A DNA stretch of 63,381 nt, filler included, from Reclinomonas americana ATCC 50394 (taxonomy: Eukaryota): NCBI GenBank assembly GCA_048213135.1. It is 8 parts of 3 records of this genome, joined end to end, with 100 filler letters (N's around TTAATTAATTAA, not from the genome) between each part and the next. Parts side by side here need not be neighbours in the genome. Positions count along the whole stretch, not along the records: positions 32,158 to 59,127 come from PS015159.1; 7 more parts are not named here. One strand, given 5' to 3'. This document shows positions 37,101 to 62,022 of the stretch, one piece after another. The position numbers and the translations under genes are program-made. Positions within the stretch are counted from its first letter, which is position 1; each line of letters opens with the position of its first letter. The notes beneath the pieces are model-generated. The model was not told where the DNA came from. It saw only the letters and a list, made by a program, of their open reading frames with translations, and searched no databases.

Positions 37101-37350
37101 TATCGTGACGGCGATGCCCCACTGGCACTGGCCTGCCAGTTCGTCGACAGGTGAGTAATCCCGAATGCCTCCCCCCCACATCGATATCGAAATTCAACAA
37201 AATCTCCCCCCTCTCTCTTCCCCTCTCCTCAGACACAACCTGCAACCTGGCGCCGTGGACATTATTGCCGCGCGTCTACAAGAACTCGTCGACGCCAGGA
37301 GGCGAGACTCGACTCCTAGCGTCTCACGGACCTCATCGCCACCGCAATGA
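34186..37350 (+). CDS. Two-TM protein with ERGIC-like TM motifs, a large luminal domain and a PFU-like C-terminal domain
   Basis: TM1 RKTRFGGLLSVLVVAACIALTVVL and TM2 LIVICAILGGVVFLAAVGFLL. Last exons VVLSIEVADGVMRDIEYRDGDAPLALACQFVDR|HNLQPGAVDIIAARLQE. Confidence 0.5.
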
Positions 37351-37690
37351 ACATTTTCGGACAATTTAGTTCTTAGACGAGATGTTTTGCAAGTTGTTGC
37401 GGCTTCCTCTCGTCCTCTGCTCCACCCCCAGTCGTTGCTAGTCTGTGTTGCCCTGCTGGGTGCTGTCCAGCAGAGTGGCCGTGGAAGCACCGATTCACTT
37501 GCACTGGAATTTCGTTCGATTTCTCGAAAATTGGTTTATTTTGCGCACACTGGAAAACCGAAGTGCCATAAAACCGTAGGCCGGAGATCGGTTTGCTCAC
37601 ACTAGCCCCTCTACGTCTTCGAGAGAGCGAAAGCAACTCCCCCAACAACAAACAACAACACTCTTCCTTTTTACCACAACCCATCCCATC

Positions 37691-37724
37691 ATGAAGGTCG
37701 TCTGCGTCGGTGCTGGTTATGTCG
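37691..37724 (+). CDS. First exon of UDP-glucose 6-dehydrogenase (rest in gap; 37834-37924 may be its 3' end)
   Basis: MKVVCVGAGYV(G) followed by a GTGAGT donor; matches the UGDH GAGYVG Rossmann start. Confidence 0.6.
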
Positions 37725-38064
37725 GTGAGTCTCTCCCTCCCCCCACCTCCCTCTCCCTCTCCTCCCATCTCTTCCTCACCACCCTTTCCCTTTCTCCTNN
37801 NNNNNNNNNNNNNNNNNNNNNNNNNNNNNNNNNCGACGCGGCCGGCTCCTCGGCCGGCACCCCGCGCACGCCCAAGTCACCGAAGACGCCGACGCTGCGT
37901 GCGGCCCCGGCGGGTCACCACTAATCACCACCACCACCACCTGCTTGGTTGGTAATTGTTTAGAGATGTGTGCGCAATTGTTTTGAAAAGAGGAGGAGGT
38001 CAACTGGGAGGAATGAAGACAAACGAAATGTCAAGTAACACTTGTGTAGCAAGGGGGTGCGATT

Positions 38065-41000
38065 TCAATCACGATCACCCGAGTTGGGAACATACGCTGC
38101 ACGGCCCACACCGAGGTAGCGCACCAGTCCCCACGTAGCGGCCTCCCAAAGAACCAATCGCAGAGGTTCGATAATCACGGCGTGACCGACGTCACCGAGG
38201 AACGCTCCGAGAAGCTGCGAGGCGCATGTGAGAAAAAATGCATCGATGAACAACAACATGGGCAAGACGCACCACTTGTTGGTCATGATGCGTCGCGGCG
38301 AAGGACGCCATGGTGAGCAAGATCTCAAAGGTTACCCAGCCGGCCAGCAACAAGCACAGGATGTAGCCGACGTACACCAAGGCGTACGGCAGCTGTCTGG
38401 TGCGGATGAGATAGGCGTATCGTTGCCAGCGAGACTAAGTTGCATGGACAAGCAGATGCAAGTTAGTGGCCAATGCACAGGGAAAAAGACGCGCTCATCT
38501 GGATACTCACTGACCTTGAAGGCGGGTGGCGGTGGCTGTGAGGCTCGCACTTGTCGCTTGATCACATTGTTGGAGGTCTCGACGCTCGTGACTCCACGCA
38601 GTGGGTTCGGATTGCGGATGGACTTGACGCAGTTGGTGAACACGTTGTTGGTGAAGTGCACACGTCCGGGCGTGGCTCGAACTCGAGTCTGTGTGCGGGT
38701 GTGCGCGCGTAGGGTGAGGATACCGAGCGACATACACGTCGATGTGTACGGCAATTACCTCTGCTTCCGTCAGGCGGTACGCCTTGCCAATGTCGGCGCC
38801 ACTCTCCCGCAGCTGAGTAATGAGGTCATCCGTGGGACACAACTCTGCACCGAAACCGTAGCCAAGCAGCGTGTCGTGCGAGATGACCAAGTTCTCAAAG
38901 AGGATCTCCGACACTGGCAGGTAGCGACGGCGCTCCGACTCCGACATGAATTCCTTCATGCGCAAGGACGACGACGAAGGCGACAGCATTTGCATCTCGG
39001 ATTCGAGTTCGAATTCCGATGGCGGCGAGTCACGCCACGCGTCGGAGGCCGTGGTGTGCAATCGAAGCGACACATCCAGTGGATTGCGCGTGCTGTACGT
39101 CAGCAACGCGCTATCCGTGTGTGCGGCACTGTGGTCCATGTCGGACGGGTGCACGCTGGCGTCACGGCTGGACGGCTGCCGCTGCGAGGCACTCAGCGCA
39201 GCCACGCCAACGCGAACAGCTACACGCTGCTCGCGCGGCAGAGTGTCCGAGTTGTCGACTTGCAACACGGCCATGTGCACTTCGTGACCGCAGAACATGA
39301 GCACACCGCTCTTGGTGCGCACGTTGGCGGGCACTGTGATCGGCGGGTACACGCCAGGGCGCAAGTAAATCACACTCGGCAACATCGTCGACGACTCGAG
39401 TAGCGACTGGAGCGTCGTGCTGTCGGGCCCGGCAGACTCGGGCGGGTCCACAAACACAAAGTCGCTGGAGTCCTTGATGCGTTGCAGCTCGGCCTTTTCC
39501 ACTCGCGGTGGCCAGAAGATTTCCGACACACGCTGCGCGACCTCTGTGACACAAAAGAGTGAGCAAACGGAACATGAAGGAGAGCTCTTGCAACAGCGAG
39601 AGACCTGGGCTGAGGGCGGCATCCGACGTCCACCACGAATTGAACTCGTCCTCTGTGCGCCGGCGGCAGCGCCCACTGACGCTACCGCTGAGCCAGCGAC
39701 GCATGTCAGTTTTCATCCATTCCAAACCGCGAACGCGGATCTTTTCCGACTGTGACATTTTCAAGAATGGTAAGCACGCGACATGATACCGTGGCTCAAG
39801 CGAGCGTGAGTGACACTCGCCTTGCACGCGCGCACAAACAGCAAGAACGCCGCCAGAATGCTTCCGCGATTTTCGGCCTCGAACAACGCCTGCTGCAACA
39901 GCACCGTAGTCGTGCTTGAGCACAGACGCATGGGGCGCGTCTCCTGCACAGCGAGAGAAACTTCAGTGCTGCATGTTGTCAGCTTGCCCCTTCAAGTGAA
40001 TACAATGGAAAACCTTGGCTGCCGATGACCGGACCGCCTTGGCCTTGCAGTAAAACTGTATGCGGTAGCCGTCGGGTCCCGGGATGGACGACGTGTTGGA
40101 CAGGGACGGATCGTCACGGTCAATCAGATACGAGCGGAAGAGTGCCGACGTGGCTTCCTCGTCTCGTTTCTGCTTCGAGCGCTTTTCCTGCACACAATGA
40201 GGTTGGCGACGCATGCTCTCTCTACCACGCGCGGAGACAGATGCGCACGCACCTTGGAGAGTGAGATGGAGGGAATCTCAAATGTCGCCTGCCAGAACTG
40301 CACGCCTGTGTCGGCCACGAAGCGCACCTCGCGGTCACGGGCATCGGGGTCGGTGCGCGCCGTGTCCGGTGGTGCCAGTGGATCCTCAGCGCTCACAGGG
40401 TCGTCGGCTGCACCGCGTTGTGAGAAAAACAAACACAAAAGCCGACAACAGCGCCATGGCCACTTACCAATAATGAGTGGCGGCGCGGATGGCAACTTCA
40501 TCGACGGCACTGACGATTTGCGGAACGACGACGACGATGACTGACTGGAATCACTCATGCCCGCCGACGACTCCATCGACATGTCTGTCGCCATGGAGGC
40601 CCAGGAGCTGCTGCTGGCCAGCGACGAGCCTTGCTGTTGGACACTGTTGAACGACGACATGCGTGAGATGGAGTTGAACGAATCCGAGTGGCCGAGTGCC
40701 GTTGGCGCCGTCGGGACGCAGTAAATGGTGGAGACGTGATCGGCGGAGAGGCCGGCACCGAGATCGTAGGTGCGATGCAGCTGCTGCGCCCGCTGGAATT
40801 CCATGACGGACTCTGAATGGAGGCGGGGGCAAAAATGTAACTGTCAGTACGAGTCATCAAGGCTGGCAAGTGTTACGATCCGCACCGTGAATCGCACGAC
40901 GTTGCTCCTCCTCCGTCTTCTCCGACGGAGGCGGCTTGACGCGAGGCGTGAGCACAAAGAAGAGGCTGGTCAAGAACACCACCGGCACCACAAACAGGCC

Positions 41001-44000
41001 GCCTGTACGAAACAAATGCACGCGTGTGAGCGGCATTCGAAGAATCACAGCGCCCTCTCCACTATGCAGTCACACCAAGAAGCGCGCGCCACAGTGCACG
41101 GAAGAGCATCAGTCCAAAGTCCGCAATGTCGGTGCCGCTCAGCAAGAGGGTGTTCACCCAGCAGCACATGATGAGACCGAGCCACAGCACCTGTGCACGC
41201 AACCAGCGTGTGGATCAGCAAGCACATGAAGAAGACGAGTAGTGCGTGGACCACTCAACAGTCAATTTCTGTGGTCGTCTGAACGTCTCGCTGCGTCGGT
41301 CCTTCACCGCAGTGACCCACACGTGCTCTGACGACAGCTCCTTCACTCGGTCCCACATCTTTCGCAGAGGTCCACGGGAACGGTTGAGTGCAATCACTTG
41401 CAGCACGGCCGCCTGGAAGCGCTGAAGTGCGCGCTTATCCTGCCATAATTTCGTCTCGCGTTGAGAACAAGTGCAATACAATGCCGAAAAAGCAACCACC
41501 GCAACTCGGATCTTGTAGGTGCTAGAGCTGGAACTCGAGCCACCGGCACTATCCGCCTGCCCCGACTGGTCACTTCCACCGAGGAAGAGGGAGCGCAGGC
41601 CGGAACGGTTGCTTCGTGCGTTCTTGGCCGAGTTCGCCAATGCGGTCTTTCGCTTGCGTGCCTCACTGCGTCGCTTTCGGCGATTCAGGCGCGCATCCAC
41701 CTCTTGCTCACACATCTGCATGAGAATGGTCGTCACGTATCAGTCACCATTGCATCACACAATATACGGGTGCATGCAAACTGGCTTACCGAGTCGGCAC
41801 GCGTCAGTGACTCGGACGCGGGGGGTGCTGGTGCTGGGTCGGTGTGCGATTCTCGAGGTGAGTCGGGCAGATTGTCGTAGAGGCTCTGCCGACCGGCTCG
41901 TCGCCGACCGACGTGACGAGCGGTCTTCTTGGCCGCGTTGTCGGCGGCAGCATGTGCGGGCTCGACTTCTCCGTCCTCTCCCACGGCCGACCCGTGAGTA
42001 CTCACAGTCACCCACTGGCCAGCGGCCTCGAGTTGCGAAGCAGCTGCCCATTCGTCGGCTGACGTCACGTAACCGGGCACCCACTGCAAGCGCGCGCACG
42101 AGAGGAGTCAGACTAAAGGTAGCCATGCTGGGTGACTAAGGCGCACGTGCGCGTGTGGGGGACACACCGAGTGCAAGGCCGCGCTGGGCGCATCTGGGCG
42201 GCGAAGCGGAATCGCAGCGCCCTCCGCAGCCGCGCGTGCCAGGTCGTCCGCCAGGCTCATTTGGCGCAGTGACTGACGTCGGCCACGCTGTGCGCAACTA
42301 AACTTTAGAATTGACGAGCAAACAAATGACGATCCCATACACGCACACGAACACACACCTTGCGAACAGCAGACACGTCGTCCTGATCGGTCACCAGGGT
42401 GGCCAGATTGCCACGCATACTGGATGCAGATACAAGTGACGAAGAACTGCCCTCACTACGAGCCAGCTGCAGCTCTGCTTCCGAGACGTGTCGAGATGGC
42501 AGTCGATGTTGCCTCTGCGTTCAGGCAGATGTGGTGAGTGCATCCGTGCACAGACATTTGCGCAACATCGAGACCAACCACTCACCCTGGACGTGCTGCT
42601 GATGGACGACAGCGACGCATTGAGATCGACCAAATCGCCCTCCGCAGCGCTGACGAGAATACCCCGTCGGCGACTGTTCATCGAACTAACCGAGTCGCTT
42701 CGTCCGAGAGCGGCACTGTCCAGCATCGTGTTCGACTGCAAGTGCATCGCGTCAGCAGAGACGTGCATGACGATGACAGCCGCAAAGGCACTCACCGACA
42801 CTGGTACCTCAGCCGCGAGCACGTGCTGAATCTCGGCGACCGACGGCTAAACGCAAGAAATCAAAGCGACAGTCAGTCATGATTCATCCACGAAAAGGAG
42901 ACGCCAGTGAAGACGCACTGCTTGCGGCTGCTCGTTGACCACTTCCGCCTTTTCGCGTGAGCGTGACGAGGACCGCTTGCCACTGCTCTGGCCCTTCTTC
43001 TTCTTTCTGCGACGACCCTTGGAGCGCCCTTTGCGGCTCTCGTCTTCCAACTCTTCCTCCTCCATGACTGGCAAGGCGTCGAGATCGATCGAGTCCACGT
43101 CGATTGTTGATGCCGAACGCGATGGCGCGGCCGCAGGGATGCGCGACACCAGCGGCTCAGTGATTGGCACGTCTGCATCGGCTTCTTCCCCTTCGTCGTC
43201 GGAGGCCTCTGCGGCGAATGGAATGTCGCCGAACTTGTCCTTTTCAGCTGTACGCTTGTCGCCCACAATCTGCGCAAGCACAAACGTCAGTCTTCTGTGG
43301 CACGTGTGACACGGGCAAGAGTCACGCACGGCATCCCAAGCCACGGTAGAGGACCGGGAGGTCATCTTGACAATGTCGGCCAGGATGGCCTTTGTGCGCG
43401 GCAAATGCGCCGCAACATCGGCACTGCCCAACTCGGCACGAATGCGGCTGAGGAGCTTGTCGATCTCGGAGCGTCGCTTCGAAGACGTCTCCTCCTGCGC
43501 ACACACCACACAATGACTTGCCGTTGTCGCGATACAGCGGCGCGCAGTATCAAGCTACCTTTTGATCCATGCGACGATCGGCGCGCCACAACAGCAGCAC
43601 GCCAATGACGTACAGTCCGTGAATGGCGCACAAAAAGTAAAACGTGGGACTCGTGAGGAGACCGTACTTGAGAATGAGTGATGCGTCGGCGGGACTTGCA
43701 AAGTTGAAGTGTGGCAGCAAGATGCTGGTAATGTCGACCGAAAACTCGGTCATGTGAGTCGCTGCGCATCGGACAGCCGTCACCTGGAACACAAGAGAGT
43801 GAATGCGTGAGAAAAAGGAGGAGATGGATATAAAACGTGGGCGACATCGCACCCGCGGAATGGCCCCCGGCAGCAGCGGGGCCACAGTCAGCAGCGGATA
43901 GACACCGTCGGTGGCAAAGGTGTTGTTTGCAGCGTTCCAGTACTGACACAACGGGAGCATGGTCGAGTTGATGCGCAGTACGCTTGACGAGGTGGTGGTC

Positions 44001-47000
44001 ATGTTGAACGCCGCGACAGAGGTCACGTTGTCTGTCACGTTGATGAGAAACCAATACTGAAGCTTGGTAGAACGTAATGTTACTCACCGACGAACGACGA
44101 GCAGTCTTGCAAGTGGCACAAGGCAACGAGTCCCAGCGCCCCCTGGAACTGTGTGAGCAGCGTGCTCTCCTCCGGTACGCTCATCACAAATGGCTCCGGA
44201 AGTCCCGAGACGGTGACAGTGCCCGTGGGGCTCTGTGCGTTCGTGATCAGCGCACTATGGTTAATGCGACTCGCTAGCAGAACACCCGTGAGAGAATCGC
44301 ACACAAACCACAATGGAGTACGAGTGACAGGAGGAGGTCGTGAGGTTGGCGGCGGCAGCTTGCGGTGAGATGGAGCGCGAAGTACAGGTGGAAAAGTCGA
44401 CCTGCGTGTACGCGAATGAGCTAACACAGATCGTAAATACGTACTGCTTGCTCGTTCAGGCTAAACCTGCACAAAGGCGCGCATGTCTGTTGATCCGCCA
44501 GTCACTTGCGATACCAACGAGTCCGGCAGCGTGACTGAAGTCACATTGGCGGCCTGCACTGACGCCGAGCCACACACAGAGGTCGCTGTGTGCAAGTGTT
44601 TCTCCAACTTGAGTACGAACGCAGCGTGTAGGAATCAGAGTGCGCTGCAACAACACAAAACTGCACGACATGGACAGCGAACTGGCGCTGGCCGCAGTCT
44701 CGGTGGCGCGGCCGCCCAGTTCGTACGCCGATATTCGCACCATTGGGTTGTCAAGGCGCAGAGAGCCCGACCCCGACGTCTGTGAGAGATCAGTCATGCA
44801 AACTCGATTGATGTGGAGAGGAGACGGCGACATGGGCGCACCTGCAGCGCCGACACCATCACATGCTCAGCCACGGTGGCCGCCACGGCCTGCAGAGACG
44901 AAACGGCCATTGGATCTGCTGCCTGACTCAGAAGCAGCTGGTTGACGGCCGAACCAACAGTCTGCGACGTGAACGGTAATGTGAGACAACAATGGCGAGA
45001 GAACAAGTGCACATCAAAACGGCGACTGTACGCACCGTCAGCTGACTTTGCGTGGTCTTGTCGGTAATCGCAGCACTCAGCAGTGCCTGTGCCACGTTGG
45101 CACGCAGCTGCCGGCCGACCCACGATCGGACCGGCAGCAGCGTGGCTCCGACTCGGGAGAACTTGTCGGCGGCATCGTACACATTGGAGAGCACATACTG
45201 CACGGCATCTGTCGACGACGACGATGCACGAGAGAGCGAATCACTCCACGACAACAAATTACCCTCGACCGATGGATCTGCAACAGACGAGTAGCGAGGC
45301 AGGCGTGAGTGTGGCATTCGGGAAGCACGCAAGCAGGGCGGCCGGCTGCGTACCTGTGTCGATAGATGAAGTGCTGCCGTCCAACAATGCAGACGCGCAC
45401 ACTGAAAGCAAGCCGATTACACGAGCGGTCGCTGCTTCGCCCTGCGTTACCTCCTGTGTGTTAGCATCCGCACGGGAGAAACGCGAAAGAAAGGATGAAG
45501 CAGTGACGCACTCCCGACACTGATTCGGCACGCCGAAGTCCGTCTGACACCAGAGACGCCAGTTGTGACACGGAAAGGTCTGCCAGAGGGCACACCGTGG
45601 CCTGACTGGAAACGGTAGAACTGTGACGTGGAACACAAAAGAGACCGCGAGTGAGAAAAAGGCAGACTGCATGCACATGGCACCACGTCGCTTACTCAAC
45701 GTGGCGCCAAACTTGTCCTGAATGCGGACGCCGACACTCAAGTCACACTTGCTTGTGCCACCCTGCCCGGCAGGCAAGAGAACGCCAGACACACTGCTCA
45801 GTGTACTGTTGGTGACCGCCAGTGGAACCTCACGTTGGGTCGTGGGGTCCAAGTAGTAGAAACTGAGAATGGTCGAGCTGTCGTCGTCCCCGAAGCCAGT
45901 GGCAGAGAACGTGAAAGAGGTTTGCCAGGCCGTGCCGCTGTCCGGAGATATGCGGAACTGGGCAAGTATTGGCACGTCCGTTGTGGTTGTGTTGCGCCGT
46001 GCCAGGGCTAGTAGTACCAAGTGTGAGTGAATTCGTTGGCAATACATGCTGTTGAAAGGTGTCCGCTCACCAGAGCCTAATACCGGATGACTGACATGCA
46101 CCTCCAATGCATACACCACATTTTCTTGCAGCGAACTGGCTGGAATCGAGAATGCAAAATTGTTGCGCTGCACGTCATCTGCCAAGTCCAAAATCGATAC
46201 ATCGCCCTCTCTGTTGCGCAGTCAAAGACGCTGGGACACACTCAAGGCACTGCAAAACAAGCACGCAACGCCAGATACAAGGCCACCCACGAATAGGAGA
46301 CAGCCTGAAGATCGGCGGCTGATGCACCGCGCACCACGGAGGTGCCAGTGAGCGCATTCCGCGGGTCCACCTTGCTGCTCGCAAAGGGCTGTGGCGAGCA
46401 AAAACATGCATCAGTCAACCATGGGTAGCGAGGGATGGAGGTAAGGCGAACGAAACTCTGACACTGACGGTGAGGCCGCGCGTGGTACTGCCATCAACAG
46501 TGGCCATTGATCCCATCGACGCAATCGTACGGAAGCAGCTCGGCGGCCCCAGCAGTCCGGACCCCCGGCTGTTCACCAACGCTGTTCGCACTCGGTACAC
46601 GGTGTTAGCGCGCAGACCGCGCACTGTCGCCGACACCGGAGACGCAAGTTGCGCCGACGTGGAGAGCGCCGAAAGCGATGTGACCGCATCCCAACTGCTG
46701 CCATGGTCCACGGGGACGGCCGACTGACACAACGCACCATCGCTAACCGCCAGTGGCTCCGCCAGGCGCAAAGCTTGCACGCTGATGGCGGTGAGCGGCA
46801 GATCGGTGAGATCCGGCAACGCCTGCACGGACAACATCAATCGCGACTCTGTGGCCTGCTGCAGGACAGGTGCCAGCGTGGTGCCGATGGGTCCAACCAC
46901 TGCACCCACAAACCCACGCAAGAGCGAACATGAGTCACCAAGGCAAGAGAGCGACAAGAAAAAACTATAGCTTGTTCAACAAACCGCCTGCTGCAGCTAC

Positions 47001-50000: not shown

Positions 50001-53000
50001 ATGCGCTGGCGCCGCCCACAATGGTGTAGGTGAACGACTCGCCGCTGTTGACATCGGTCGCACTCAACGTGCCGACGAGCACATTCGGCAGCGCCGTCGG
50101 CGGCGTGTACGTATTGTTCGACAACATAATGTCGGTGGGCGCGACGTTCACTACGCGCACGAGAGAGGTACGCTGATGAGCGGCGAGTGGAAAAACAGAG
50201 AAGGAATACAAAACGCACCTTCGCTGATGAAGAATTGGCGAGTGAACGATGCGCCAGCCGAATCAGTGGTGCGGATTAGCACCCCCAAATTGTTTCCGGT
50301 GAGCGCTGCCACGCTGGAACGCAGCGTGTTGCCGACAATGGAGAAGAAATTGGGGTTGAGGCCACTAACCACCGTATACGTAAATGTCTGGCAGCAGTTT
50401 GAGTCTTGCGTCGACAGGGTACCGATTACAGTGTTGATGGGGCATGGTAGGGAGTAGAGCACTGACGACAGCGAGATGTCCGATGGAGCAACATTTGCTG
50501 AACGGTTCGGGGACCACACGTGAGACACACAATGAAGGCAAAAGCACATGCATACACACACACCTTCATCGATCGTCAGCGTTTGTGTGAAGCTCAGCGA
50601 TGTGCTGTCGGTGACGCGCACTGTCACTGATAGCCCGTTACCGCGTTGTCCTGCAGTCTTGATGACCAGCAGCGACGACGACACAATGTCAAACAGGGAA
50701 GGTGCGGCTCCATTGACGATGGCGAACTGGAAAGTGTCGTTCACGTTGCCGTCGACGGCACTCAAAACTCCGACAATAGAATTGTCACTTGCGGTGGGCG
50801 GTATGTATGTGTAGGACGACAGAAGGATGCCCGTTGGTGTCGCAGGAGCTGGGCAAAGTAGGACCAGTAAATCAGACATTGACAAAAAACCACCATTGGC
50901 ACACGAGCAGCCGCCACGCAACAGTCGGTAATGGTGAATGTCTGATCAACGCTCGCGCCCGCCGCATCGGTACTGCGCACAGTAACCACGAAGCTGGCAC
51001 CCGTCTGACCGTTGTTCACAAACGCCAGCACATTGGCCACAGTCGTGAAAAGTGAGGCGTGAAGGCCGCCCACCACCGAGTAGGTGAAGCTGTCGACGGC
51101 ATTCACATCGGCTGTCGACAACACGCCGACTGCAAACAGAGCGGACGACGTCGGAGGACGGTATGTGGTGGACGAAATGGTGATGCCGGTGGGGGCCACG
51201 TTGTCTAAAATTGAGAAATGGTACGCAGTCAGAACGAGATGCACCGTGTGCGTGACAGGCTTGACCAAATGCGTGCGCAACTTTCGTTAATGACAAACGT
51301 CTGCGTAAATGTGCCCCCCTTGGCGTTGTCGGTGCGCACCTGCACCTCCAGTCCTGTTCCGCGTTGACCAGCGGTCACCAAGCACAAGGAGGAGCCACTG
51401 ACGGCAAAGAGGGCGGCATTCTGTCCACCAGTGATGCTGTATGTGTACACCGCGCCGACACCCGTGCTGACAGTCGTCAGGGCGCCCACGACAGTCATGG
51501 CGGCGGCCGTCGGCGGCGTGTATGTTTTTGCGGACAACAGAATGTCCGTTGGCATTGGATTCTCTGCGGATAGACAAGAACAGCATCGTCATCAAAGAGT
51601 CTCGTGCACAGCGGGAGAATGATTGACACCACACCTTCATCAATCGTAAACGTCACTTGCACGGTGCCTCGGGCGCCGTCGTCACTCTGGATAATGACCT
51701 CGAGGGAACTTCCCGTCTGCTTGACGTCATTCAACAGGAGACTGGAGCCGGAGATGGAGAAGAGGTCTCCAGAACCGCCGCCGACAATAGAATAGATGAA
51801 CTGCTGGCAGCAGTTGCGGTCGATCGTGGTCAACGTGCCGACCACAGTGTTGGTGGTCGCGGTAGGCGAAACATATGTCTTGGAGGACAGCTGAATGCCA
51901 GTGGGAATCACATTGGCTGCAACAAGTGAACAGTGAGTCACACAGAGAGGTAATGGAGAGCAAAGCAACGGGGATAGATCGACGCACCTTCGTTGACAGT
52001 GAATGACTTGGAGGTGGACAGACCCGACGAATCTGTGGACTGCACAGTGACGCCCAAGCCGTCACCGGTCTGACCAACGTTGCGCAGCATCAGCATGTTG
52101 CCCACGACGGTGAACAGGCTGGCCGGTGCACCAGTGGCGCTCACAATCGAGTACGAGAAGGAGTCCTGCACATTGCCGTCCACCGTACTGAGAGCGCCCA
52201 CCACCGTGTTGGTGGTGAGGGTGGGTGGCGTGTACGTCGACGAGGAGAGGCGAATGTCAGTGGGCGCCACCGGCACTGCAGGGAAACGCACAACTTCAAG
52301 TCAACACCAATAACACAGACACACACACGCACTTGGCACACTTGTCCACCCCACCATCGTTGACCACAAAGCGCTTGTCAAACGCCGCGCCTCCGTTATC
52401 CGTAGCCCGAATCACCACCTCCATGTTGGTGCCCGTCTGTCCAGCAGCGCGGATACGCAACAGGTTGCCGACGGCCTCGAAAACGGACGAAGAGCTCCCA
52501 CCGGCAATGCTAAATGTCACCGTGTCGCCCTGATTCGGGTCAGTGGCGCTCAACACACCGACCACAGTGCTGGTCAGTGATGTTGGCGGCTGGTACGTGG
52601 TGCCGGAGAGAGTGATATCAGTCGGTGCGAGGTTGACTGTACGCACAACGCGAGTCAGTACCAGCACACAAAAGACAAAGCGTACACAGTGATTGATGCA
52701 CCTACGGTGAACTGGAGCGTTCGACTGAGCGGCACATGAAAGCCGTCGTCCACCGACACTGTCACTTGCAGTGCACCACCCACAAGCGGGCCACTCTGGC
52801 TCACTCGCAGCTGGCTGCCGACCACCTGGAATGAGCTGGCGTCCGTGCCGCCCACAATCTGATAGGTGAATGTCTGGCAACAGTTGGCATCCACCGTCGA
52901 CAGATTGCAGACGAGGGAGCCAGGTGCGAGACCCAATGCAAAGCTCGAGGAATCGCAGTTGAGTTGCGACGGGAGCACGTTTTCTGAGCAATGTGGTCAG

Positions 53001-53778
53001 ATGCGCAAATGCGCAGACAATCTCGTCAACATCATGCACACCTTCGTTGACGGTGAAGGATGTGTCCGCCCACAAGCCGGTGGAGTCGGTGACCCGGACC
53101 ACCACCGCCAGCCCATTGCCTGTTTGTCCGCTGTTCAGCAGTGCCAACTTGGCGCCGCCGACAATGGTGAAGAGCGACGCCTGCGCGCCACCGACCACGG
53201 TAAACGATGCCGTATCATTCACGTTGCCGTCGACAGCCGACAGCGTGCCGACCACCAAATTGGCGGAGGGTGTCGGCGGAGTGTACGAGTTGCGCGACAG
53301 CGTAGCTCCGGTAGGTGCAACAGGAACTGCGGAGGGCGAGCATCATGAGCACATGCAACATCTTAGGAAGGCACACGCTGCATCGACCAACCGTCGTTGA
53401 CGACCAGTGACACGTCGACCGACAGAGACGGCTTGCCTGAATCGGAGCTGCGCACTATGACTTGGAGACCGGTGCCTCGCTGACCGGCTGCAGATAATCG
53501 CAGCTGGCCAAGCTGCGAGACGTTGAACAGCGCCGCGTCGGTGCCGCCCACAATCGAGTANNNNNNNNNNNNNNNNNNNNNNNNNNNNNNNNNNNNNNNN
53601 NNNNNNNNNNNNNNNNNNNNNNNNNNNNNNNNNNNNNNNNNNNNNNNNNNNNNNNNNNNNNNNNNNNNNNNNNNNNNNNNNNNNNNNNNNNNNNNNNNNN
53701 NNNNNNNNNNNNNNNNNNNNNNNNNNNNNNNNNNNNNNNNNNNNNNNNNNNNNNTACGTACGTACGACGTACGACGAC

Positions 53779-53863
<85 letters not shown>

Positions 53864-56408
53864 AGACACACATAGGCAGACACACAAACCCTCGTTAATA
53901 AGGAATGATGTGGAGAAGGAGGCACTCATGGAATCCGTGGTGCGAACGGTGACTTGTCGCTGGTTGCCGCTGAGGCCGGTAGCGACCACACGCAGCTGAT
54001 TCCCAACCAATGTGAAGCTGGCCTGGTCCGTACCACCGACAATTGCGTAGGTGAACGTCTGGCAGCAATTGCCGTCCACAGTGGTCAGCGAGCCGACAAT
54101 GGCGCCCACCGTGGCAGGAACGGCATACGTGGCAGACGACAGGATGAGACCAGAGGGCGGCACATTGGCTGCCCCCCGATGCACAATGAAATGAGACTGC
54201 ACGCTCCACAGCGGACCAACACAGACGCACACACAAAAAAAAGCTCGCCAGACCTTCGTTAATGGTGAACGATTTGGTGAACGTGAGGTTGCTGGCGTCT
54301 GTCACGCGAATTTGCACGACCAGACCGTCGCCGGTTTGCCCGGCGTTCTTCAGCAACAGCGACGAACTCGACACATTGAACAGGGCTGCCGACGCGCCAC
54401 CGACAATCGAGTACGTGTATGATGCCGAGCCTCCGATCTGCACGGTACTGAGCTGCCCGATGGTGATGTTCGTAGCACTTGATGGCGGCAGGTACGTGTT
54501 GGACGACAACAGTATGTCGGTAGGCATCGCCACTGGTAGCGGGTGAGGATCACCAATAATGTGATAGCACGTTGTCGCGCACAGCACTCACCAGCAGTAA
54601 TAACAAATGACTTGGTAAACGTGAGCTGCGACGAATCCTGCACTTGCACTTGCACGGCAAGATTGGTACCCGACTGGCCAGTCGACCGCAGACACAAGGC
54701 ATTGCCGATCACGGTAAACAGCGCGGCATCCGCTCCACCTACCACCGAAAACGTGAATGTATCCGTTGTATCATTGCCCACCGCCGCCAGGATGCCAACT
54801 TGCTGATTGTTCGAGGTCGTCGGCGCGGCGTAGCTTGTGGATGAGAGCGTAATGTCGGTGGGTGGATACACAGCTGTGTAACGATGAGTGGGTGGGTGGG
54901 TGGTTGTACAGAAACACAGCCGACAGAGAGTAGGCGGACTTACCCTGCAGGGTAAAGGTCTTGGTGTACGTGAAGCCGCCGACGGGGTCATCGGCGCCAA
55001 TCGTCACTTGCAGCGATGAGCCACTGATGCCGCCGGCAGCCGAAACCCGCAGCTGATTGCCAGCGACAATGGCGACACTCGCGGCATCGAGCCCTCCCAC
55101 CACGGAGTGTGTGACCACTGCGGGAGTGCAAGCGGAGGCCGGGATCAAGGTTGTCACGCCCGCGCCAATCTGCCACCCGACTGACGCCCACTTGCTTCCG
55201 CTGCTCCACTTGTGTCGCACTCGCAAGTACACCACGGTGCCGGCTTGCAACGAGAGCGGACTGGACGCTTGCGTCGCGGACTGTGTCCACTGCTGGTAGC
55301 CAGTGGCCGCAGACGTGTACGCTATTTGTGTGGCGGTGCTGCGCGAGCCGGTGGCACTGAATTCAAGCACAGCGTCCTGCACAAAAATGGGTGAGCGTGG
55401 CTCTCGAGCAGAGAAGAAGAGAGGGACACACAGCACGCAACATTACTGGCGGCCACGTAAAACGTGTACGTGGCAGTGGAAGGTATGGTGACAAAGGCTT
55501 GGAGGCGAGCGGCGAATGGAAGCGATTCCGAAGAGGTGCCCTCGAAGCCATTTGTGACCACACGGCACACATTGGGGGTGGTTATCCACGAGAAGCTCGC
55601 CACCGTGGAGCCACTGGCATTTTGCCACACCTCTTCGTAGACGCCGTTGGAGCTGTTCGCCTGCGAGTGACACCAGTTGGCGTCCGTTGCCGTCAGCGTG
55701 CCGAGCAACACGCCAGAGGCTGTCGGCGACACAAAAGTCGAGGTCGACAGTGAAATGTTGCTCGGCGACACATTCGCTGTGGTGTTGTACACGCAAAGAC
55801 AATAAGGGACACATTGTGGAGGAGCAGTGAGTGATATGCACGGCGCACGAAACTCTCGGCGATCGTAAACACCGACTCGGAGTACAGGCCACCGAGGTCG
55901 GTGACGCGCACCGTGACCGACAAGTTCGTACCCGAGACGCCGGTATTCGCGATGAGCAACTGCGTGCCGACAATGATGAACTGGCCGGCGGTGCTCTGCG
56001 CGGTAATGCTGTACGTCAGCTGGTCATTGCTGTTTGTGTCGGTTGCCGACAGCGTGCCAACGACAGTGTTGGTCATCGTGGTTGGGGCGGTGTAGAACGT
56101 GTTGGAGAGAGCCGGAGCCGTGGGAGCAGAGTTGGCTGTCCATTACACAGCGATGAGTGGTGACACGATGGAAAAAGGGGAGGCAGCATAAACCCGAAAC
56201 GCACCGACTGTCACGTAGACGGTCTCCAGGCGGCGGTACGGCGTCGATGGAGCAAAGCGCAGGCACACGTCGTAGGCTCCACTTGCGGCTGCAGGATAAA
56301 GCGACTCGATGAGATGCGCTCCTTATGATGGGTGCACAGAGGGAGAGAGAGGGTAGTAGGGGCAAGGAGTACTTGAAATGCAACAAGGCATGACCAAAGC
56401 AAGATAGG

Positions 56409-56469
<61 letters not shown>

Positions 56470-58259
56470 GACGACGACGACGTACGTACGTAGTACGGTA
56501 CGTACGACGAACGTAACGTAACGTAACGTACGGTACGGTACGGTACGGTACGGTACGGACGGACCGGTACCGGTACGGTACGGTAGGTAGTAGGTAACGG
56601 TAACGGTAACGGTACGGNNNNNNNNNNNNNNNNNNNNGAGAGAGAGAGAGAGCACAACGCACTTGACGAGGTATTGGCCAGCAATACAATGGTCGGATAC
56701 GTGCAGGCCGACTGAGTGATTGAGAACACGGGTGAGCCACTGCACGGCGTCGCACTGGCAGCGTATCCTCTGGCTGCGGTCGCGTCGATGGGAACGTACA
56801 GCAAGCCGACGCCCGTCAGCGTAATGGCCACAGAACTTGAGGCGGCGATGTTGCGCGGCGATACCGCAGTCACCGAGACTTTTGGCATGCGGCAGGGTGA
56901 GCGAGAACGGCGAAGGGAAACAGGCGGGCGAGATGAAAAACGCAACAAACAGAGAACGGATAGGCCGTCATGTACGCCTTGGTCGATGCCCAGCGAATGC
57001 ACAGCTGGTAGTTGCCTGCCATTTTTGCATTCCCACAAAGTGAGTGCGAAAGTACTGCAGCAGACAGCGTTGCTTCTTGCTCACCTCCAGTGGCGCCAGT
57101 GGCCACCACAGACAACACCATGGACGTCGGCAACGTGGCAGACGTCACCGAGATGGAAATGTTGGGCACGATTCTCGGTGCCGAACAGGCGGTACTGGAG
57201 ATAATAGCACCATTCGCATCACCGGAGATGCTAGTCATGCCACAGCCGGCGATTGTGATACTGGTCGTGCTGGTCGCCGCAATCACTCGCGGCTGCACAA
57301 CATACACAGCGGCTGCAATGCGGATGAGGGCATGAGTGTAAGAACTGACGTGCACACTAGAGATGAGGAGGCCCGGCATGCCACGTACCCGGATCGGCCA
57401 GAATCTGCATGTAGTGCTCTCCCTGTGTTGTGTGGCAGGCACAGGTGAGTTTAAGCGCGGCGTATTTATGATGGAGGCTGTGAGCACGACGCACCTGTTG
57501 TGCATAGACCAGTGCATTTGAGCCCGGGAACGCGACAACACCTGACGGGTTGGTGACGGTGCCACTGTGTAGTAGGTGCATAATATTGAGTATTCTTGAA
57601 GATCAGCAACTTTGTTTAACCAACATGTACCTCACAGGCGACAGTGTGTCGACGTAGTTGATCGCGTATCGCAGGCGTCGAATAGCAGATGCGCCCTGCG
57701 AAGCACAGTAGCAGTGAGCGACCGCGGAGAGTCAAACATCGGACGTTGGTGTGAACGCAACTCTGTCGGCAATAAACACATCGCCACCACTGTTCACATC
57801 TACATCGTCCGGCTGCATGAACATGGCCGTCGTCGTGGCCGGACCGTCCACAAATCCACTCACGCTGGTGCCAGCCACAGTCGAGACCGTGGCTAATAAA
57901 CACAGTGTCATTATTTTCGGGCGAGAGTGTTAGGTGAAGGAGAGCACATAAATACACTCACCAGTGGTGGATGTCAGCAGACGAATGAGATAGTCGCTGC
58001 CGGTCGTCAGCAACTGTGTGGTCGACTGGAGGGCGACGGAAGTCGGACCGGCAAAGGTGGCTGACGTGAAGGAGCCGTCAGTGGAGCCCGAGGAACCGGT
58101 GCCGGCGTAGGTGTACACAGTGGATGACACGAGGTCGATGCGGCGGATCACCCGCGACACCTGTGGAGGCGAAAGTGAGATAAAGAAGGAGAAGGAGAGA
58201 AGGAGAGGGAGGGAGGGAGGGAAAAGGGGAGAGAGAGAGAATGAGAGGGAAGAGAGAGG

Positions 58260-58334
<75 letters not shown>

Positions 58335-58520
58335 CGACGACGAACGACGNNNNNNNNNNNNNNNNNNNNNNNNNNNNNNNNNNNNNNNNNNNNNNNNNNN
58401 NNNNNNNNNNNNNNNNNNNNNNNNNNNNNNNNNNNNNNNNNNNNNNNNNNNNNNNNNNNNNNNNNNNNNNNNNNNNNNNNNNNNNNNNNNNNNNNNNNNN
58501 NNNNNNNNNNNGAGAGAGAC

Positions 58521-58590
<70 letters not shown>

Positions 58591-59127
58591 GGATCAGCAA
58601 TATACAGGTTGCGTGATGTCGAGTCGAGCACCATGCCGCGCGGTGACCTACAGAGGTCGAGGTTGAGCGGTGAAGCCGATGAGAGCACATGAAGCGAGAC
58701 GAACGCACTCGAAGGTAGCAGAGAGTACGGGGCCGTCAGTGAGACCGGCACCGCCGGTGCCGGCCAGCGTGGTCACCAATCGCGTGTTGAAAGACAGCGC
58801 CTTGATTTTGCGGTTGTTTGTGTCCGCCACGTAAATCATGCGCAAGACCTCGTCGAGGGCGATGCCACTTGGATTATTGTAGCGCGCCGAACTCCAGGTG
58901 GCATCTGCGGTGTGCATCGTTAGAAAAACCGTGACAGAACATGGTGAGAGCGACGTACGCACTTATATCGCCGGCTGAACCATCAGTCGTTCCGGAGAGC
59001 GAACCGGTAAATCCTACCGAACGAGAATTGCGAACTGGTGAGTGCCACGATCGCACACAACACGTGCGTGCGTGAGCGCGTGCCACGCACCAAACGTGGT
59101 AATAAAGCCGACATAGTTGCGTGTATT
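38065..59127 (-). CDS. Giant polycystin-1/REJ-GPS-like membrane protein (5' partial): NHL repeats, TIG-like domains, ~22 cadherin-like repeats with PA14 insert, 3 FN3, REJ-like region, GPS, ~5 TM
   Basis: NHL ARYNNPSGIALD..YVADTNNRKIK. Repeats APTDITLS..VGTLSATD..FTYSIVGG..VRxTD..FxIxE. FN3 FTGLDPYAEYSARVRASNSAGDGPW. REJ SPDSGTAWQTSFTFSATGFGD..LLPAG..VRIQDKFGA. GPS CQYWN..THMTEFSV. Polycystin TM motifs SEHVWV..FRRPQKLT, LPYALVYVGYILC and IIEPLRLVL. Stop at 38065. Confidence 0.75.
47748..56130 (-). repeat. Array of ~22 cadherin-like domain exons (~285 nt exon plus ~70 nt intron period)
   Basis: Each ~95-aa repeat ends F-x-(I/V)-x-(E/D) at a phase-1 donor. Confidence 0.85.
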
Positions 59128-59622
59128 NNNNNNNNNNNNNNNNNNNNNNNNNNNNNNNNNNNNNNNNNNNNTTAATTAATTAANNNNNNNNNNNNNNNNN
59201 NNNNNNNNNNNNNNNNNNNNNNNNNNNGGAGGAGAGGGGAGGAGAGGGAGGAGAAGGAGGGGTGGGAGGAGAGGAGAGGGGAGGAGAGGGAGGAGAGGGA
59301 GGAGAGGGAAGAGAGGGGAGGAGAGGGAGAGAGAGACAGACAGACAGACAGACAGAGAGAGACACAGAGAGCACAAGCACACAGCACAGAGATAGAGACA
59401 GACAAACGGACAGGCAGGCAGGCAGACAGACAAACAGAGAGAGACAGATAGAGTAGAGAGAGACAGCGAGAGAGAGGCAGACAGAGCAAATAAGCACAGA
59501 GAGTGTCTGTGAGAGAGTAAACAGATTGAGAAACAGAAAGAGAAAGAGAGACACATAGACACGCAGGCAAACAGACAAACAGACTGGCACTCTCTCTATC
59601 TCACTTAATCTCGCACTCTGCA

Positions 59623-60560: not shown

Positions 60561-60763
60561 GAGAGACAGAGAGCGACAAAGACACACACACACTGAAAAA
60601 TCATCTGTGTCTCATCTCTCACTCATTCACTCACTCTCTATCTCACTCTGTGCCACCCACTANNNNNNNNNNNNNNNNNNNNNNNNNNNNNNNNNNNNNN
60701 NNNNNNTTAATTAATTAANNNNNNNNNNNNNNNNNNNNNNNNNNNNNNNNNNNNNNNNNNNNT

Positions 60764-61810: not shown

Positions 61811-62022
61811 TGTTGCGTTACTTTTCTTGCTTTCGAGAAACACTGGTGTCGGCGACTGACTAAGANNNNNNNNNNNNNNNNNNNNNNNNNNNNNNNNNNN
61901 NNNNNNNNNTTAATTAATTAANNNNNNNNNNNNNNNNNNNNNNNNNNNNNNNNNNNNNNNNNNNNTTGTTGTGCGTTTGTCTCTGTGTGTCTGGCTCACC
62001 AAAAACCCTCCCCAACATCGCA

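Follow-up and report, generated by a model that had tools for sequence, protein, structure and literature searches.

A short-intron eukaryotic gene on the minus strand of the 63,381-nucleotide stretch of Reclinomonas americana ATCC 50394 DNA analyzed here (the window) encodes an array of cadherin-fold repeats of bacterial type, FN3 domains, a REJ module, a GPS-like sequence and a transmembrane helix (TM1). We consider it reasonably probable that these parts belong to a single, very large adhesion receptor of type I at the cell surface, which in its visible portion and from the outside inward would consist of an incomplete NHL-like head, a pair of small Ig-like domains, a 22-repeat stalk, three FN3 domains, REJ, a GAIN-like region with the GPS motif, TM1 and a Ser-rich, charged tail. 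The domain mix is unusual, yet it is made of known parts and would represent a new architecture among cleavable REJ/GAIN adhesion receptors.

Gene structure and the incomplete head

The curated gene model is a stop-free chain of 55 GT/GC-AG exons that runs on the minus strand from 59013 to 42586 and comprises 3,751 codons. The preliminary description had spoken of several thousand residues, and at least about 3,750 are indeed read from GT-AG exons. Its continuous exon run of about 21 kb (38065..59127) stands as far as 42586, whereas its upper bound is simply the end of the sequence record, and continuity between 42586 and 38175, discussed below, has about an even chance. Introns are short (median 69.5 nt, range 52-120 in 36 clean cases), and GC3 in exons is 0.71 compared with an intron GC content of 0.53. 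Parsing the gene with generic splice models gave 141 exons, an over-fragmented result that was discarded. Splice-site density did not discriminate between the strands, even within the sure part of the gene, and poly(A) hexamers are absent throughout and hence uninformative about the gene end.

The first usable exon (58963..59013) carries the motif G-F-T-G-S-x-S-G-T-T-D-G. Neither a start codon nor a signal peptide was found between this exon and position 59127, where the record ends and an N44-TTAATTAATTAA-N44 spacer comes next. An ATG at about 59113 was rejected as start codon because its frame does not match that of the next exon and no hydrophobic signal is associated with it. Since the gene extends past the end of the record, its 5′ end, the signal peptide that we expect for such a protein and the true tip are missing. 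The upstream half contains three N gaps (58350-58511, 56618-56637 and 53561-53754). From 53560 to 37834 the sequence is free of such gaps, so that cadherin repeats 7-22, FN3, REJ, GPS and TM1 share one uninterrupted stretch, while the NHL-like and Ig-like parts are linked to the remainder only through the scaffold gaps at 58350-58511 and 56618-56637.

An NHL-like beta-propeller region occupies 57389..59013 on the minus strand. About five blades are readable by eye in the translations of eight exons, although the region is broken by the gap at 58350-58511 and by a (GT)n run and is cut by the record end. Pfam NHL matched two of nine ORF pieces with 17.5 and 18.4 bits (E 0.0043 and 0.0022), below the cut-off of 20, such that the NHL propeller proposed earlier is retained as a blade-like pattern with sub-threshold profile scores. 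It cannot be named the tip of the protein, since the gene continues past the record end. The adjoining interval 56205..57312 (minus strand) comprises two domains of about 72 aa with one exon each (57312-57085 and 56878-56663), a 20-N gap (56618-56637) in the intron that follows them, and a short exon from the exon model (56288-56205). The two domains are homologous to each other (38% identity, E 4e-8) and possibly IPT/TIG-like. With no Pfam match for IPT/TIG at E values up to 1 and nothing above chance level for the Ig-like exon among PDB sequences, the earlier designation as TIG-like domains is not confirmed by these searches.

A stalk of bacterial-type cadherin repeats

The region 47748..56135 (minus strand) encodes 22 cadherin-fold repeats of about 93 aa each. 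An HMM derived from the repeats of the window gave 23 matches between 56124 and 47746 (E 4e-10 to 3e-38). These amount to 22 repeats, of which one is interrupted by an insert and another, repeat 6, has lost half of its sequence to the N gap at 53561-53754. The 20 complete repeats are single exons of 276-288 nt, every length being divisible by three, in phase 1-1, and are separated by introns of 58-85 nt except for the one that spans the gap. Repeat 2 is distributed over two exons (55776-55442 and 55376-54944) and carries its insert in the D-x-N loop (55176..55636), as is evident from the HMM halves that stop at 55637 and restart at 55175; the insert itself contains one intron (55441-55377). 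By eye only, it looks PA14-like; Pfam gave no support, and a PDB-sequence search with the insert exon returned chance-level matches.

Structure prediction for one repeat by AlphaFold2 with 19 paralogues as alignment reached a pLDDT of 96.3. Foldseek comparison of this model with the PDB retrieved cadherin EC domains throughout the matches listed (TM 0.52-0.74), and VIA-align against 48,161 chains retrieved cadherins in all 50 entries listed, with Z values of 9.3-11.2 and, for the 85-94 of 95 residues aligned, an rmsd of 2.1-2.9 A. The model thus conforms to a seven-strand EC-type beta-sandwich, the fold of the cadherin superfamily, and the roughly 22 cadherin-like repeats of the preliminary description are confirmed by HMM, exon structure and predicted fold.

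Sequence comparison points to bacteria. Searched against 168-2000-aa proteins, the repeat profile yielded 144 matches, the best of which are 'cadherin domain-containing' proteins of Rhodopirellula (E ~1e-212, 40-42% identity over 96-98% of the repeat) that are themselves recognized by Pfam Cadherin at 1e-95 to 1e-99. Per domain, the profile scores 8-11 bits on animal cadherins versus 50-67 bits on bacterial ones. Pfam Cadherin matched only three of the 20 single repeats (best E 0.0024). Among PDB sequences, 20 of 21 profile matches were cadherins; CELSR1 ranked first, with an E value of 9.5e-05. By these sequence measures, the repeats are cadherins of bacterial type whose identity to those of planctomycete adhesins is about 40%, and a bacterial-adhesin-like stalk, as suggested earlier, is well founded.

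The array differs from its bacterial relatives in the residues expected to bind calcium. The X-E-X position (column 16) is D, E or N in none of 20 repeats compared with 87% of 230 bacterial repeats, and the D-R-E-like position (column 66) is kept in none of 20 compared with 70%. Judged from the alignment, two classical calcium-ligand positions are lost in all 20 repeats. The remaining ligand columns are largely occupied (D32 and N34 in 17/20 each, D79 in 19/20), the linker reads N-E or N-D, and the equivalent of LDRE is G-Q-T-G.

The membrane-proximal module and the region downstream

The stalk is followed on the same strand by three FN3 domains, in agreement with the preliminary description: two significant ones at 47377..47671 (Pfam fn3, 1.3e-08) and 46985..47256 (7.2e-13), and a weak third within a 443-nt exon at 46457..46899 (E 0.04). 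The REJ-like region proposed earlier is likewise substantiated. The module spans 45694..46388 (minus strand) with a matched core at 46005-45694, where Pfam REJ (PF02010) scores 40.2 bits (cut-off 25; E 2.2e-10, profile positions 303-405 of 452). Three exons are proposed for REJ (46388-46270, 46210-46071 and 46007-45713), with a 63-nt GTGAGC...TAG intron, read from the sequence, between the second and the third. A search of the REJ ORF against 1.84 billion representatives gave only four matches, all short fragments, and no orthologue; one relative, P0001, shares 42% identity (E 1.9e-14). Neither the REJ core nor P0001 retrieved a relative when metagenome loci were scanned, an alignment of four REJ sequences proved too divergent for such a scan, and a PDB sequence search with the REJ ORF yielded chance-level matches only.

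The arrangement of these exons bears on the question of whether the region upstream of TM1 could hold two or more genes or a mis-joined scaffold, for example a secreted NHL-cadherin adhesin next to a separate FN3-REJ-GPS membrane protein. Such a division would agree with the three N gaps in the upstream half and with the stand-alone, secreted nature of the stalk's bacterial relatives. However, repeats 7-22, FN3, REJ, GPS and TM1 lie on gap-free sequence, and from the final cadherin exon through the FN3 exons to those of REJ the introns measure 59-120 nt and keep the frame, being too short to accommodate a terminator, a promoter or a signal-peptide exon between domain exons. FN3, REJ and GAIN are, moreover, extracellular and require a signal peptide upstream. 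We therefore regard a division ahead of TM1 as very improbable and continue with a single receptor.

Between REJ and the membrane, the exon model for 45713-45277 is unreliable. The interval 43740..45277 (minus strand), divided over at least six short exons, would form a GAIN-like domain on the grounds of its position and composition, with helix-rich exons at 45277-44842 and strand-rich ones at 44779-43740. It ends in a GPS-like motif (43742..43948), recognized by its sequence, its cysteine pattern and ESM Atlas look-alikes. The first part, C-Q-Y-W-...-F-A-T-D-G, ends at 43904 and is followed by a 120-nt intron (43903-43784); the second part reads V-T-A-V-R-C-A-A-T-H-M|T-E-F, the predicted scissile bond lying between codons 43753-43751 (M) and 43750-43748 (T). 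In the ESM Atlas, the GPS-TM1 piece adjoins a GPS-bearing cluster (0.95, 204/256 features) and is also near a 'Polycystin-1 family' cluster (0.93) and a PLAT/GPS cluster (0.76). Pfam GPS, matching the C-terminal half of the domain, remains non-significant (E 0.15, 13.1 bits versus a cut-off of 22.5). No homologue of the GPS-TM1 ORF was found among 311-2000-aa proteins, and a PDB sequence search with the GPS ORF produced chance-level matches. The GPS given earlier as THM|TEF is thus present as a motif with Atlas support and an insignificant profile score. It is located about 35 residues ahead of TM1, the place before the helix where a GPS invariably sits (PMC3321182). GPS cysteines 1 and 3 are kept, while cysteines 2 and 4 are replaced by V and A; for latrophilin-1, the disulphide pairs C801-C832 and C820-C834 are reported, and the kept and the lost cysteines correspond to these two pairs (PMC3321182).

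The H-M|T triad fits autoproteolysis, and together with the membrane-proximal position of the REJ and GPS module it makes the cleavable receptor of the preliminary description plausible at the sequence level. Met at -1 and the missing second disulphide might, on the other hand, leave the motif uncleaved. The GPS-like motif would then be a structural relic in a GAIN-like domain that folds without cutting itself, and the protein a plain, uncleaved adhesin. Besides Met in place of Leu at -1 and the loss of one of two conserved disulphides, the 13.1 bits obtained with Pfam GPS and the existence of uncleaved GAIN domains such as that of BAI3 (PMC3321182) fit this reading; but His at -2, Thr at +1 and the T-x-F-x-V strand are all present, and the lost cysteines are partners, suggesting a tolerated, coordinated change over decay. 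An uncleaved relic appears unlikely to us, albeit worth serious consideration, and a cleavable module is preferred.

TM1 (43586..43642, minus strand; hydropathy 2.05) reads F-Y-F-L-C-A-I-H-G-L-Y-V-I-G-V-L-L-L-W and is followed by R-A-D-R-R. Regarding the transmembrane segments claimed earlier, this one clear helix right after the GPS stands, and three other hydrophobic stretches lie far downstream. A polycystin body was not detected: the interval from 43600 to 37850 yields 59 minus-strand ORF pieces 30 aa or more in length, none of which matched PLAT, PKD_channel or a TM family of any kind at E values up to 1, and an 11-TM body was not found in these 5.4 kb, which hold one clear helix and at most three hydrophobic segments. 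A finely split or very diverged PLAT domain might escape such a search. Pfam ORF scans also gave no match to a 7tm family, the sequence after TM1 being charged and of low complexity, and the absence of a 7TM region, unlike in CELSR/Flamingo, agrees with the earlier claim. Of the 'polycystin hybrid', REJ plus GPS remains, while PLAT, the PKD channel and 11 TM were not found in the 59 ORF pieces. A true polycystin-1/PKDREJ member, with PLAT and the extra helices too diverged or intron-split to be detected, would account for REJ and GPS immediately before TM1, which is the signature order of that family, for the Atlas neighborhoods and for the three further hydrophobic segments. The failure of all 59 pieces to match, the helical, charged, low-complexity residues after TM1, unlike a beta-sandwich, and no more than four hydrophobic segments compared with the expected 11 make this family membership highly unlikely, and we retain a receptor with a single clear helix.

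TM1 leads into a charged, Ser-rich, presumably cytoplasmic tail (42586..43585, minus strand), delineated by GC3, splice sites and periodicity. Its exons 43494-43345, 43269-42919, 42846-42796 and 42735-42586 have GC3 values of 0.78, 0.67, 0.76 and 0.71 against an intron GC content of 0.53. A proposed 72-nt intron (42918-42847) contains the in-frame stop at 42877-42879, which, read from the splice sites, is probably spliced out; a gene end at this stop is made less likely by the GC3 and splice-site reading. The following interval (41716..42585) is either a low-complexity coding linker or 3′UTR plus intergenic DNA. G-R-(R)-Q-S-L occurs in it twice in one frame with different codons, and a 74-nt GTAAGC...CAG intron (41789-41716) would link it to the next block, while from 42586 to about 41250 the coding score (18.6 versus 7.2 on the other strand) and the GC3 periodicity are both weak. 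The block at 38175..41715, a continuation or a separate gene, has a coding score of 117 versus 19.5 on the opposite strand and GC3 of 0.71-0.85, and minus-strand coding stops near 38175. Hydrophobic segments occur in it near 41190-41076, 41002-40941 and 38392-38273. Its 806-nt exon (39543-38738) has pectin-lyase-fold clusters as Atlas look-alikes (0.93, 111-137 shared features), a weak beta-helix lead only. The downstream 270-aa exon has no homologue among 474-2000-aa proteins, and AlphaFold2 without an alignment gave an unusable model (pLDDT 40.2).

Continuation of the gene to about 38175 and the start of a second gene near 41700 have roughly even odds. One gene through to about 38175, as drawn in the preliminary description, would specify a receptor with four TM segments and some 4,600 residues or more, in which TM1 is followed by about 600 disordered residues, a two-segment hydrophobic hairpin, a Ser-rich/beta-helix-like domain and a last hydrophobic segment. 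In its favor, the 42877-42879 stop lies in a well-formed 72-nt intron with a next exon of GC3 0.74-0.76, the 74-nt intron joins the 42083-41790 frame in phase 0 to the exon starting at 41715, the stop of that frame is only about 20 nt upstream of this exon, the recurrent motif keeps one frame, introns of at most 160 nt permit a 27-exon in-frame chain to the stop near 38175, and the coding strand bias remains minus to about 38000. Yet coding signals are weak from 42586 to about 41250, in-frame chains are nearly always obtainable, the splice-site model lacks strand power, an ATG at 41715 with an in-frame stop upstream could open a separate gene, an unconstrained parser wants four introns of 289-306 nt here compared with 52-120 elsewhere, and the downstream part resembles no polycystin module. 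On balance, we rate the extended gene just short of an even chance and base what follows on the chain to 42586.

Proposed function and comparison with known systems

We propose that head and stalk would bind a surface or a partner and that the GAIN/GPS module would cut itself during maturation, whereupon the huge ectodomain would be held non-covalently only. Under tension on the stalk, the ectodomain could subsequently come off or the T-E-F-S-V-D-I strand become exposed, a change that might be relayed by the single helix and the tail, or by another partner, rather than by a 7TM or 11-TM body. As to origin, we suggest very tentatively, and consider this history rather doubtful, that a eukaryote acquired a planctomycete-like cadherin repeat, multiplied a single copy flanked by introns to form a stalk of 22 exons that has ceased to need the classical calcium sites, and grafted it onto an ancient FN3-REJ-GAIN module with a single helix. 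If acquisition and grafting are true, GAIN autoproteolysis would be a stand-alone device for mechanical release or sensing with no 7TM or 11-TM partner domain in the chain. If a single transcript covers the region, an adhesion protein with one membrane pass can make use of REJ and GAIN/GPS modules, and the self-cleaving 'breakaway' function is separable from the GPCR or polycystin body of animals. The array would also be a clear example of a cadherin repeat of bacterial type turned into an exon-per-domain eukaryotic array with two canonical calcium-ligand positions lost in every copy. The significance of the finding is tempered by the truncation of the gene and by the common occurrence of giant, shuffled adhesion proteins among protists.

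Literature searches on the REJ domain in GAIN, unicellular or cadherin contexts retrieved no description of a cadherin-REJ-GPS architecture; a coral paper handles cadherin and REJ proteins separately (PMC4890752). The GAIN proteins of Dictyostelium and Tetrahymena are alike in possessing a eukaryotic GPS/GAIN-type module; as described in the available parts of PMC3321182 and PMC12716839, they are without the holozoan GAIN-7TM linkage, and these parts describe neither a cadherin array nor REJ in them. Polycystin-1, PKDREJ and the sea-urchin REJ proteins share with the present protein a very large modular ectodomain and the succession of REJ and an H-x|T GPS a few dozen residues before the first helix; here, however, no PLAT, PKD-channel-like region, 11 TM or PKD/LRR/WSC/lectin modules were found, the stalk has the cadherin fold, and of the two GPS disulphides only one is kept. 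The adhesion GPCRs CELSR/Flamingo resemble it in carrying cadherin-fold repeats upstream of a GAIN/GPS site, but no 7TM region was detected in the present protein, its ORFs gave no Pfam match to EGF, laminin-G or HRM, and its repeats score far lower on animal than on bacterial cadherins (8-11 versus 50-67 bits). With the 'true' cadherins of oomycetes, choanoflagellates and animals, defined in PMC2926784 by the calcium motifs LDRE and DxND, the array has in common the fold and the tandem EC-like repeats on a eukaryotic surface protein, whereas it has G-Q-T-G for LDRE and only N-E or N-D in the linker. Bacterial cadherin adhesins are intron-less and without REJ, GPS and TM, unlike the present gene, and their repeats keep Glu at X-E-X (87% acidic or amide) and the D-R-E-like position (70%), compared with 0/20 in the array. 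Over the whole repeat, the planctomycete and other bacterial adhesins, such as Rhodopirellula P0006 and P0007, are nevertheless about 40% identical to the array and share with it the blocks A-P-T-D-I-x-L-S, V-G-T-L-S, D-T-F-T-Y-S and T-D-S-G-G.

Fold, number and exon structure of the repeats

The core of the gene is an array of cadherin-fold repeats on the minus strand (56135-47748). A profile grown from one repeat gave 23 matches between 56124 and 47746 (E 4e-10 to 3e-38), which correspond to 22 repeats, as in the preliminary description, since two are halves of a single insert-split repeat; one repeat is cut by an N gap. With the same profile, no comparable repeat was found in the rest of the window (next best E 0.087). 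Each of the 20 complete repeats is encoded by a single exon of 276-288 nt, a multiple of three in every case, that is flanked by phase-1 introns, and the paralogous repeats share 33-60% identity. As Pfam Cadherin matches only three of 20 single repeats (best E 0.0024), Pfam alone would miss what they are. The label "cadherin-like" was upheld by profile searches of PDB sequences and of proteins as well as by structural modelling. Of 21 PDB sequences matched at E ≤ 1, 20 were cadherins, headed by CELSR1 (9.5e-05) and protocadherin-15 (3e-04). AlphaFold2, run on one repeat with its 19 paralogues as alignment, returned a seven-strand sandwich (pLDDT 96.3), for which the PDB matches listed by Foldseek were cadherin EC domains throughout, and cadherins also made up 50 of 50 among the matches listed by an independent structure alignment against 48,161 chains (Z 9.3-11.2, rmsd 2.1-2.9 Å, 85-94 of 95 residues).

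Two repeat types can be told apart, D-x-N-C-C-(Q/D)-T-F and D-G-N-V-N-D-T-F, and the insert in repeat 2 is located exactly in this loop. This insert comprises ~150 residues, has its own intron and yielded no match in Pfam or among PDB sequences; by eye, it looks PA14-like.

Throughout the locus, minus-strand stop-to-stop frames switch every few hundred bases. Exons were chained with a parser that combines codon log-odds with donor and acceptor matrices and was trained on the locus itself. Clean introns (n=36) are 52-120 nt long (median 69.5) and follow the consensus G/GTGYG for donors and YNCAG/ for acceptors (slashes mark splice junctions). GC contents at codon positions 1, 2 and 3 of confident exons are 0.54, 0.53 and 0.71, and that of introns is 0.53. 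A hand-curated chain of 55 exons runs from 59013 to 42586 and comprises 3,751 codons without a stop; its donors are GT except for GC in two cases. The GC donors (G/GCACGT) appear to be used by two inter-repeat introns (49869/49868 and 48805/48804, minus strand), where phase 1 and repeat length are kept. In the REJ region, direct sequence reading provided a 63-nt intron (46070-46008, GTGAGC...TAG), which supersedes a poorer one of 177 nt and adds 38 codons, while the model between 45713 and 45277 consists of three untrustworthy micro-exons. Neither a start codon nor a signal peptide was found upstream, where the gene runs to the record end at 59127.

The window contains 2,700 N, and seven N stretches (3868-3967, 9276-9375, 27831-27930, 32058-32157, 59128-59227, 60663-60762 and 61866-61965) are paired 44-N runs around 12 bases, which read TTAATTAATTAA in the one spacer inspected (59128-59227). 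We take these paired runs to be artificial spacers joining separate pieces, six of them judged by identical geometry. The window thus appears to be eight separate records joined, so that sequences across spacers are possibly unlinked. The locus lies on the piece 32158-59127, the upper limit of which is the end of a record. It contains N gaps at 58350-58511, 56618-56637 (20 N) and 53561-53754, the true sizes of which are uncertain, as is therefore the repeat count; the stretch 53560-37834 is gap-free. Long intronic (GT)n runs flank both large gaps (58590-58160 and 53888-53566), and the 20-N gap is embedded in a CT-rich repeat.

Bacterial kinship and calcium-ligand positions of the repeats

A comparison of the repeat profile with proteins of 168-2000 aa resulted in 144 hits. 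The top named matches were Rhodopirellula "cadherin domain-containing" proteins (E ~1e-212, 40-42% identity over 96-98% of the repeat). Two matched proteins, P0005 and the Rhodopirellula protein P0006, match Pfam Cadherin at 1e-99 and 1e-95 and carry a planctomycete export signal. Per domain, bacterial repeats scored 50-67 bits on the profile, whereas animal cadherins from the PDB reached ~8-11 bits, which bears out the earlier proposal of a bacterial-adhesin-like stalk. Two further proteins with the same repeat type, P0071 and P0068, show other surroundings: in one, a cadherin domain occurs together with PKD-like domains and an NHL repeat, and the other has four such repeats along with an F-box-associated (FBA) domain.

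A FastTree phylogeny was calculated for 20 window repeats and 230 repeats from 82 of the matched proteins, drawn from the best 120 of the 144 matches. The window repeats form a single clade (support 0.953) that is divided into two sub-clades, the N-C-C type and the D-G-N-V-N-D type. This topology fits an array that would have grown by amplification of one intron-flanked exon within this lineage. As the search covered proteins up to 2000 aa and the best 120 hits, there may have been a eukaryotic intermediate between the bacterial repeats and the array.

When the array was aligned to the bacterial repeats, the putative calcium-ligand positions D32 (17/20), N34 (17/20) and D79 (19/20) proved to be kept, and the inter-repeat linker reads N-E or N-D. 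In the X-E-X column, where 87% of bacterial repeats have D/E/N, none of the 20 has an acidic or amide residue (Pro instead); the D-R-E-like column, where D/E/N occupies 70% of bacterial repeats, likewise lacks such residues in all 20 (Gln or Leu). Given how ligands are distributed over the calcium sites of cadherins, sites 1 and 2 would be lost with this pattern, and site 3 might persist. "True" cadherins are defined by LDRE and DxND motifs in the Pythium genome paper (PMC2926784). By this criterion, the array repeats, judged by their motifs, are cadherin-fold domains outside the classical cadherins.

Modules flanking the array and the membrane anchor

An NHL propeller, TIG-like domains and three FN3 domains had been proposed in addition to the array. 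In the putative NHL region, five blade-like units are visible by eye, and a sixth would fall at or beyond the record end; Pfam NHL scored on two of nine ORF pieces at 17.5 and 18.4 bits, below the cut-off of 20. One of these pieces also touches Arylesterase, a six-bladed propeller family. Two ~72-aa exons upstream of the array are related to each other (38% identity, E 4e-8) and matched no family in Pfam and PDB-sequence searches, so that "TIG-like" remains a guess. Two FN3 domains are significant in Pfam, and the third is a weak match.

The REJ-like region stood up well: within the module at 46388-45694, Pfam REJ matches the core 46005-45694 with 2.2e-10 and 40.2 bits (profile positions 303-405 of 452). 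Searching 1.84 billion representative proteins with the REJ ORF returned just four hits, one of them a low-complexity artefact, and hence no annotated orthologue; the window's own protein was likewise absent from this set. The best relative is a 101-aa fragment (42% identity, 1.9e-14), and the three real hits share the core I-S-P..G.A..T.F....Y.F.Y..P.T....L-P-A-G.

The proposed GPS (43948-43742) is divided between two exons, with L-C-Q-Y-W-N-A-A-N-N-T-F-A-T-D-G before and V-T-A-V-R-C-A-A-T-H-M-T-E-F-S-V-D-I after an intron of 120 nt. Its triad has His at -2, Met at -1 and Thr at +1, and Pfam GPS recognizes the second half of the motif only (E 0.15). Latrophilin-1 is described as having GPS disulphides C801-C832 and C820-C834 and as being cleaved after H836-L837, before T838 (PMC3321182). 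Aligned with it on the H-x/T triad, the first cysteine pair is kept and both members of the second are replaced (V and A). We read the loss of both partner cysteines as a coordinated change that supports true homology. In the ESM Atlas, the cluster nearest to the GPS-TM1 piece is eukaryotic with GPS in 13% of its members (0.95, 204 of 256 features), followed by a "Polycystin-1 family" cluster (0.93); this nearness is a lead, taken on part of the protein. The ~450 residues between REJ and GPS, encoded by six or more exons, are helix-rich at the start and strand-rich at the end, as would be the arrangement in a GAIN domain. A transmembrane helix, TM1 (43642-43586, F-Y-F-L-C-A-I-H-G-L-Y-V-I-G-V-L-L-L-W), follows ~35 residues past the GPS and is succeeded by R-A-D-R-R. 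Several TM segments had been described; hydropathy revealed TM1 as the only clear helix, and single hydrophobic stretches lie near 41190, 41002 and 38362. None of 59 minus-strand ORF pieces (at least 30 aa, scanned in sets of 7 and 52) after TM1 matched PLAT, PKD_channel, 7TM or another credible family in Pfam at E up to 1.

A gene end at the stop codon 42877-42879 appears unlikely. This stop is situated between a consensus donor (GCA/GTGCGT) and the strong acceptor TTTCTTGCGTTTAG, which are in phase at a distance of 72 nt, and is probably intronic; the following exons have a GC3 of 0.71-0.76, and three-base periodicity of the same frame class is regained between 42800 and 42600. From 42586 to ~41250, the coding signal fades (parser 18.6 versus 7.2 on the opposite strand, compared with 109 versus 14 and 117 versus 19.5 in the flanking blocks), and candidate exons beyond 42586 have a GC3 of 0.55-0.62. 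The block 41715-38175 clearly codes on the minus strand. Hints at one continuous gene come from G-R-(R)-Q-S-L, two copies of which (42287 and 41900, minus strand) share a frame and differ in their codons, among them TCA/AGC for serine, and which belongs to a basophilic kinase or 14-3-3-like R-x-x-R-Q-S-L type, from a 74-nt phase-0 intron (GTAAGC...CAG) bridging to an exon at 41715, and from a 27-exon chain with introns of ≤160 nt ending at a stop near 38175, although in-frame exon chains are easily found by chance and the splice matrices are without strand power. Whether one gene or two extend down to 38175 is an evenly balanced matter. For the block 41715-38175, a search of 474-2000-aa proteins with a 270-aa exon retrieved no homologues, and single-sequence folding was useless; the Atlas gave a weak beta-helix lead (pectin-lyase-fold clusters, 0.93). 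A large exon and its neighbour (39543-38515, minus strand) contain stretches that look like right-handed beta-helix repeats, among them V-I-Y-L-R-P-G-V-Y and R-V-H-F-T-N-N-V-F-T-N-C. Below ~38000, coding switches to the plus strand; the signal at 34000-37790 (parser 58.4 versus 8.7 for minus) belongs to another gene, which either adjoins the end of the minus-strand block or converges with it.

Proposed working and comparison with known receptors

The product would be a type-I protein in which ~27 Ig-like, cadherin and FN3 domains make up a stalk that carries a propeller head. At ~4.5 nm for each EC domain, the length of the cadherin part alone would be roughly 100 nm. We infer that a membrane-proximal REJ-GAIN module could cut itself between Met and Thr, leaving the ectodomain held non-covalently, and that tension on the stalk might then release the ectodomain or expose the T-E-F-S-V-D-I strand. 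As there is no 7TM or 11-TM body to take a tethered agonist, output would have to proceed via the single helix and a charged, Ser/Arg-rich tail, via a partner protein or by plain detachment.

In the literature on the REJ domain with cadherin, the GAIN domain or unicellular organisms, no account of a chain that combines cadherin repeats, REJ and GPS was encountered. Outside animals, GAIN domains are mentioned for Dictyostelium and Tetrahymena (PMC3321182) and cadherins for oomycetes (PMC2926784), and a further study assigns the linkage of GAIN to 7TM to stem holozoans (PMC12716839). In our assessment, the modules of the protein are known and their combination is new, and its stalk is unusual in being bacterial-type, calcium-site-poor and exon-per-repeat. 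Membership in the polycystin-1 or adhesion-GPCR families failed on the membrane parts. The "polycystin hybrid" of the preliminary description holds for the REJ-GPS logic, which is common to polycystin-1 and this protein, but not for the PLAT/PKD_channel membrane part, which is unmatched here; with adhesion GPCRs, the protein has the proposed GPS in common but not the 7TM, just as the implied difference from CELSR had suggested.
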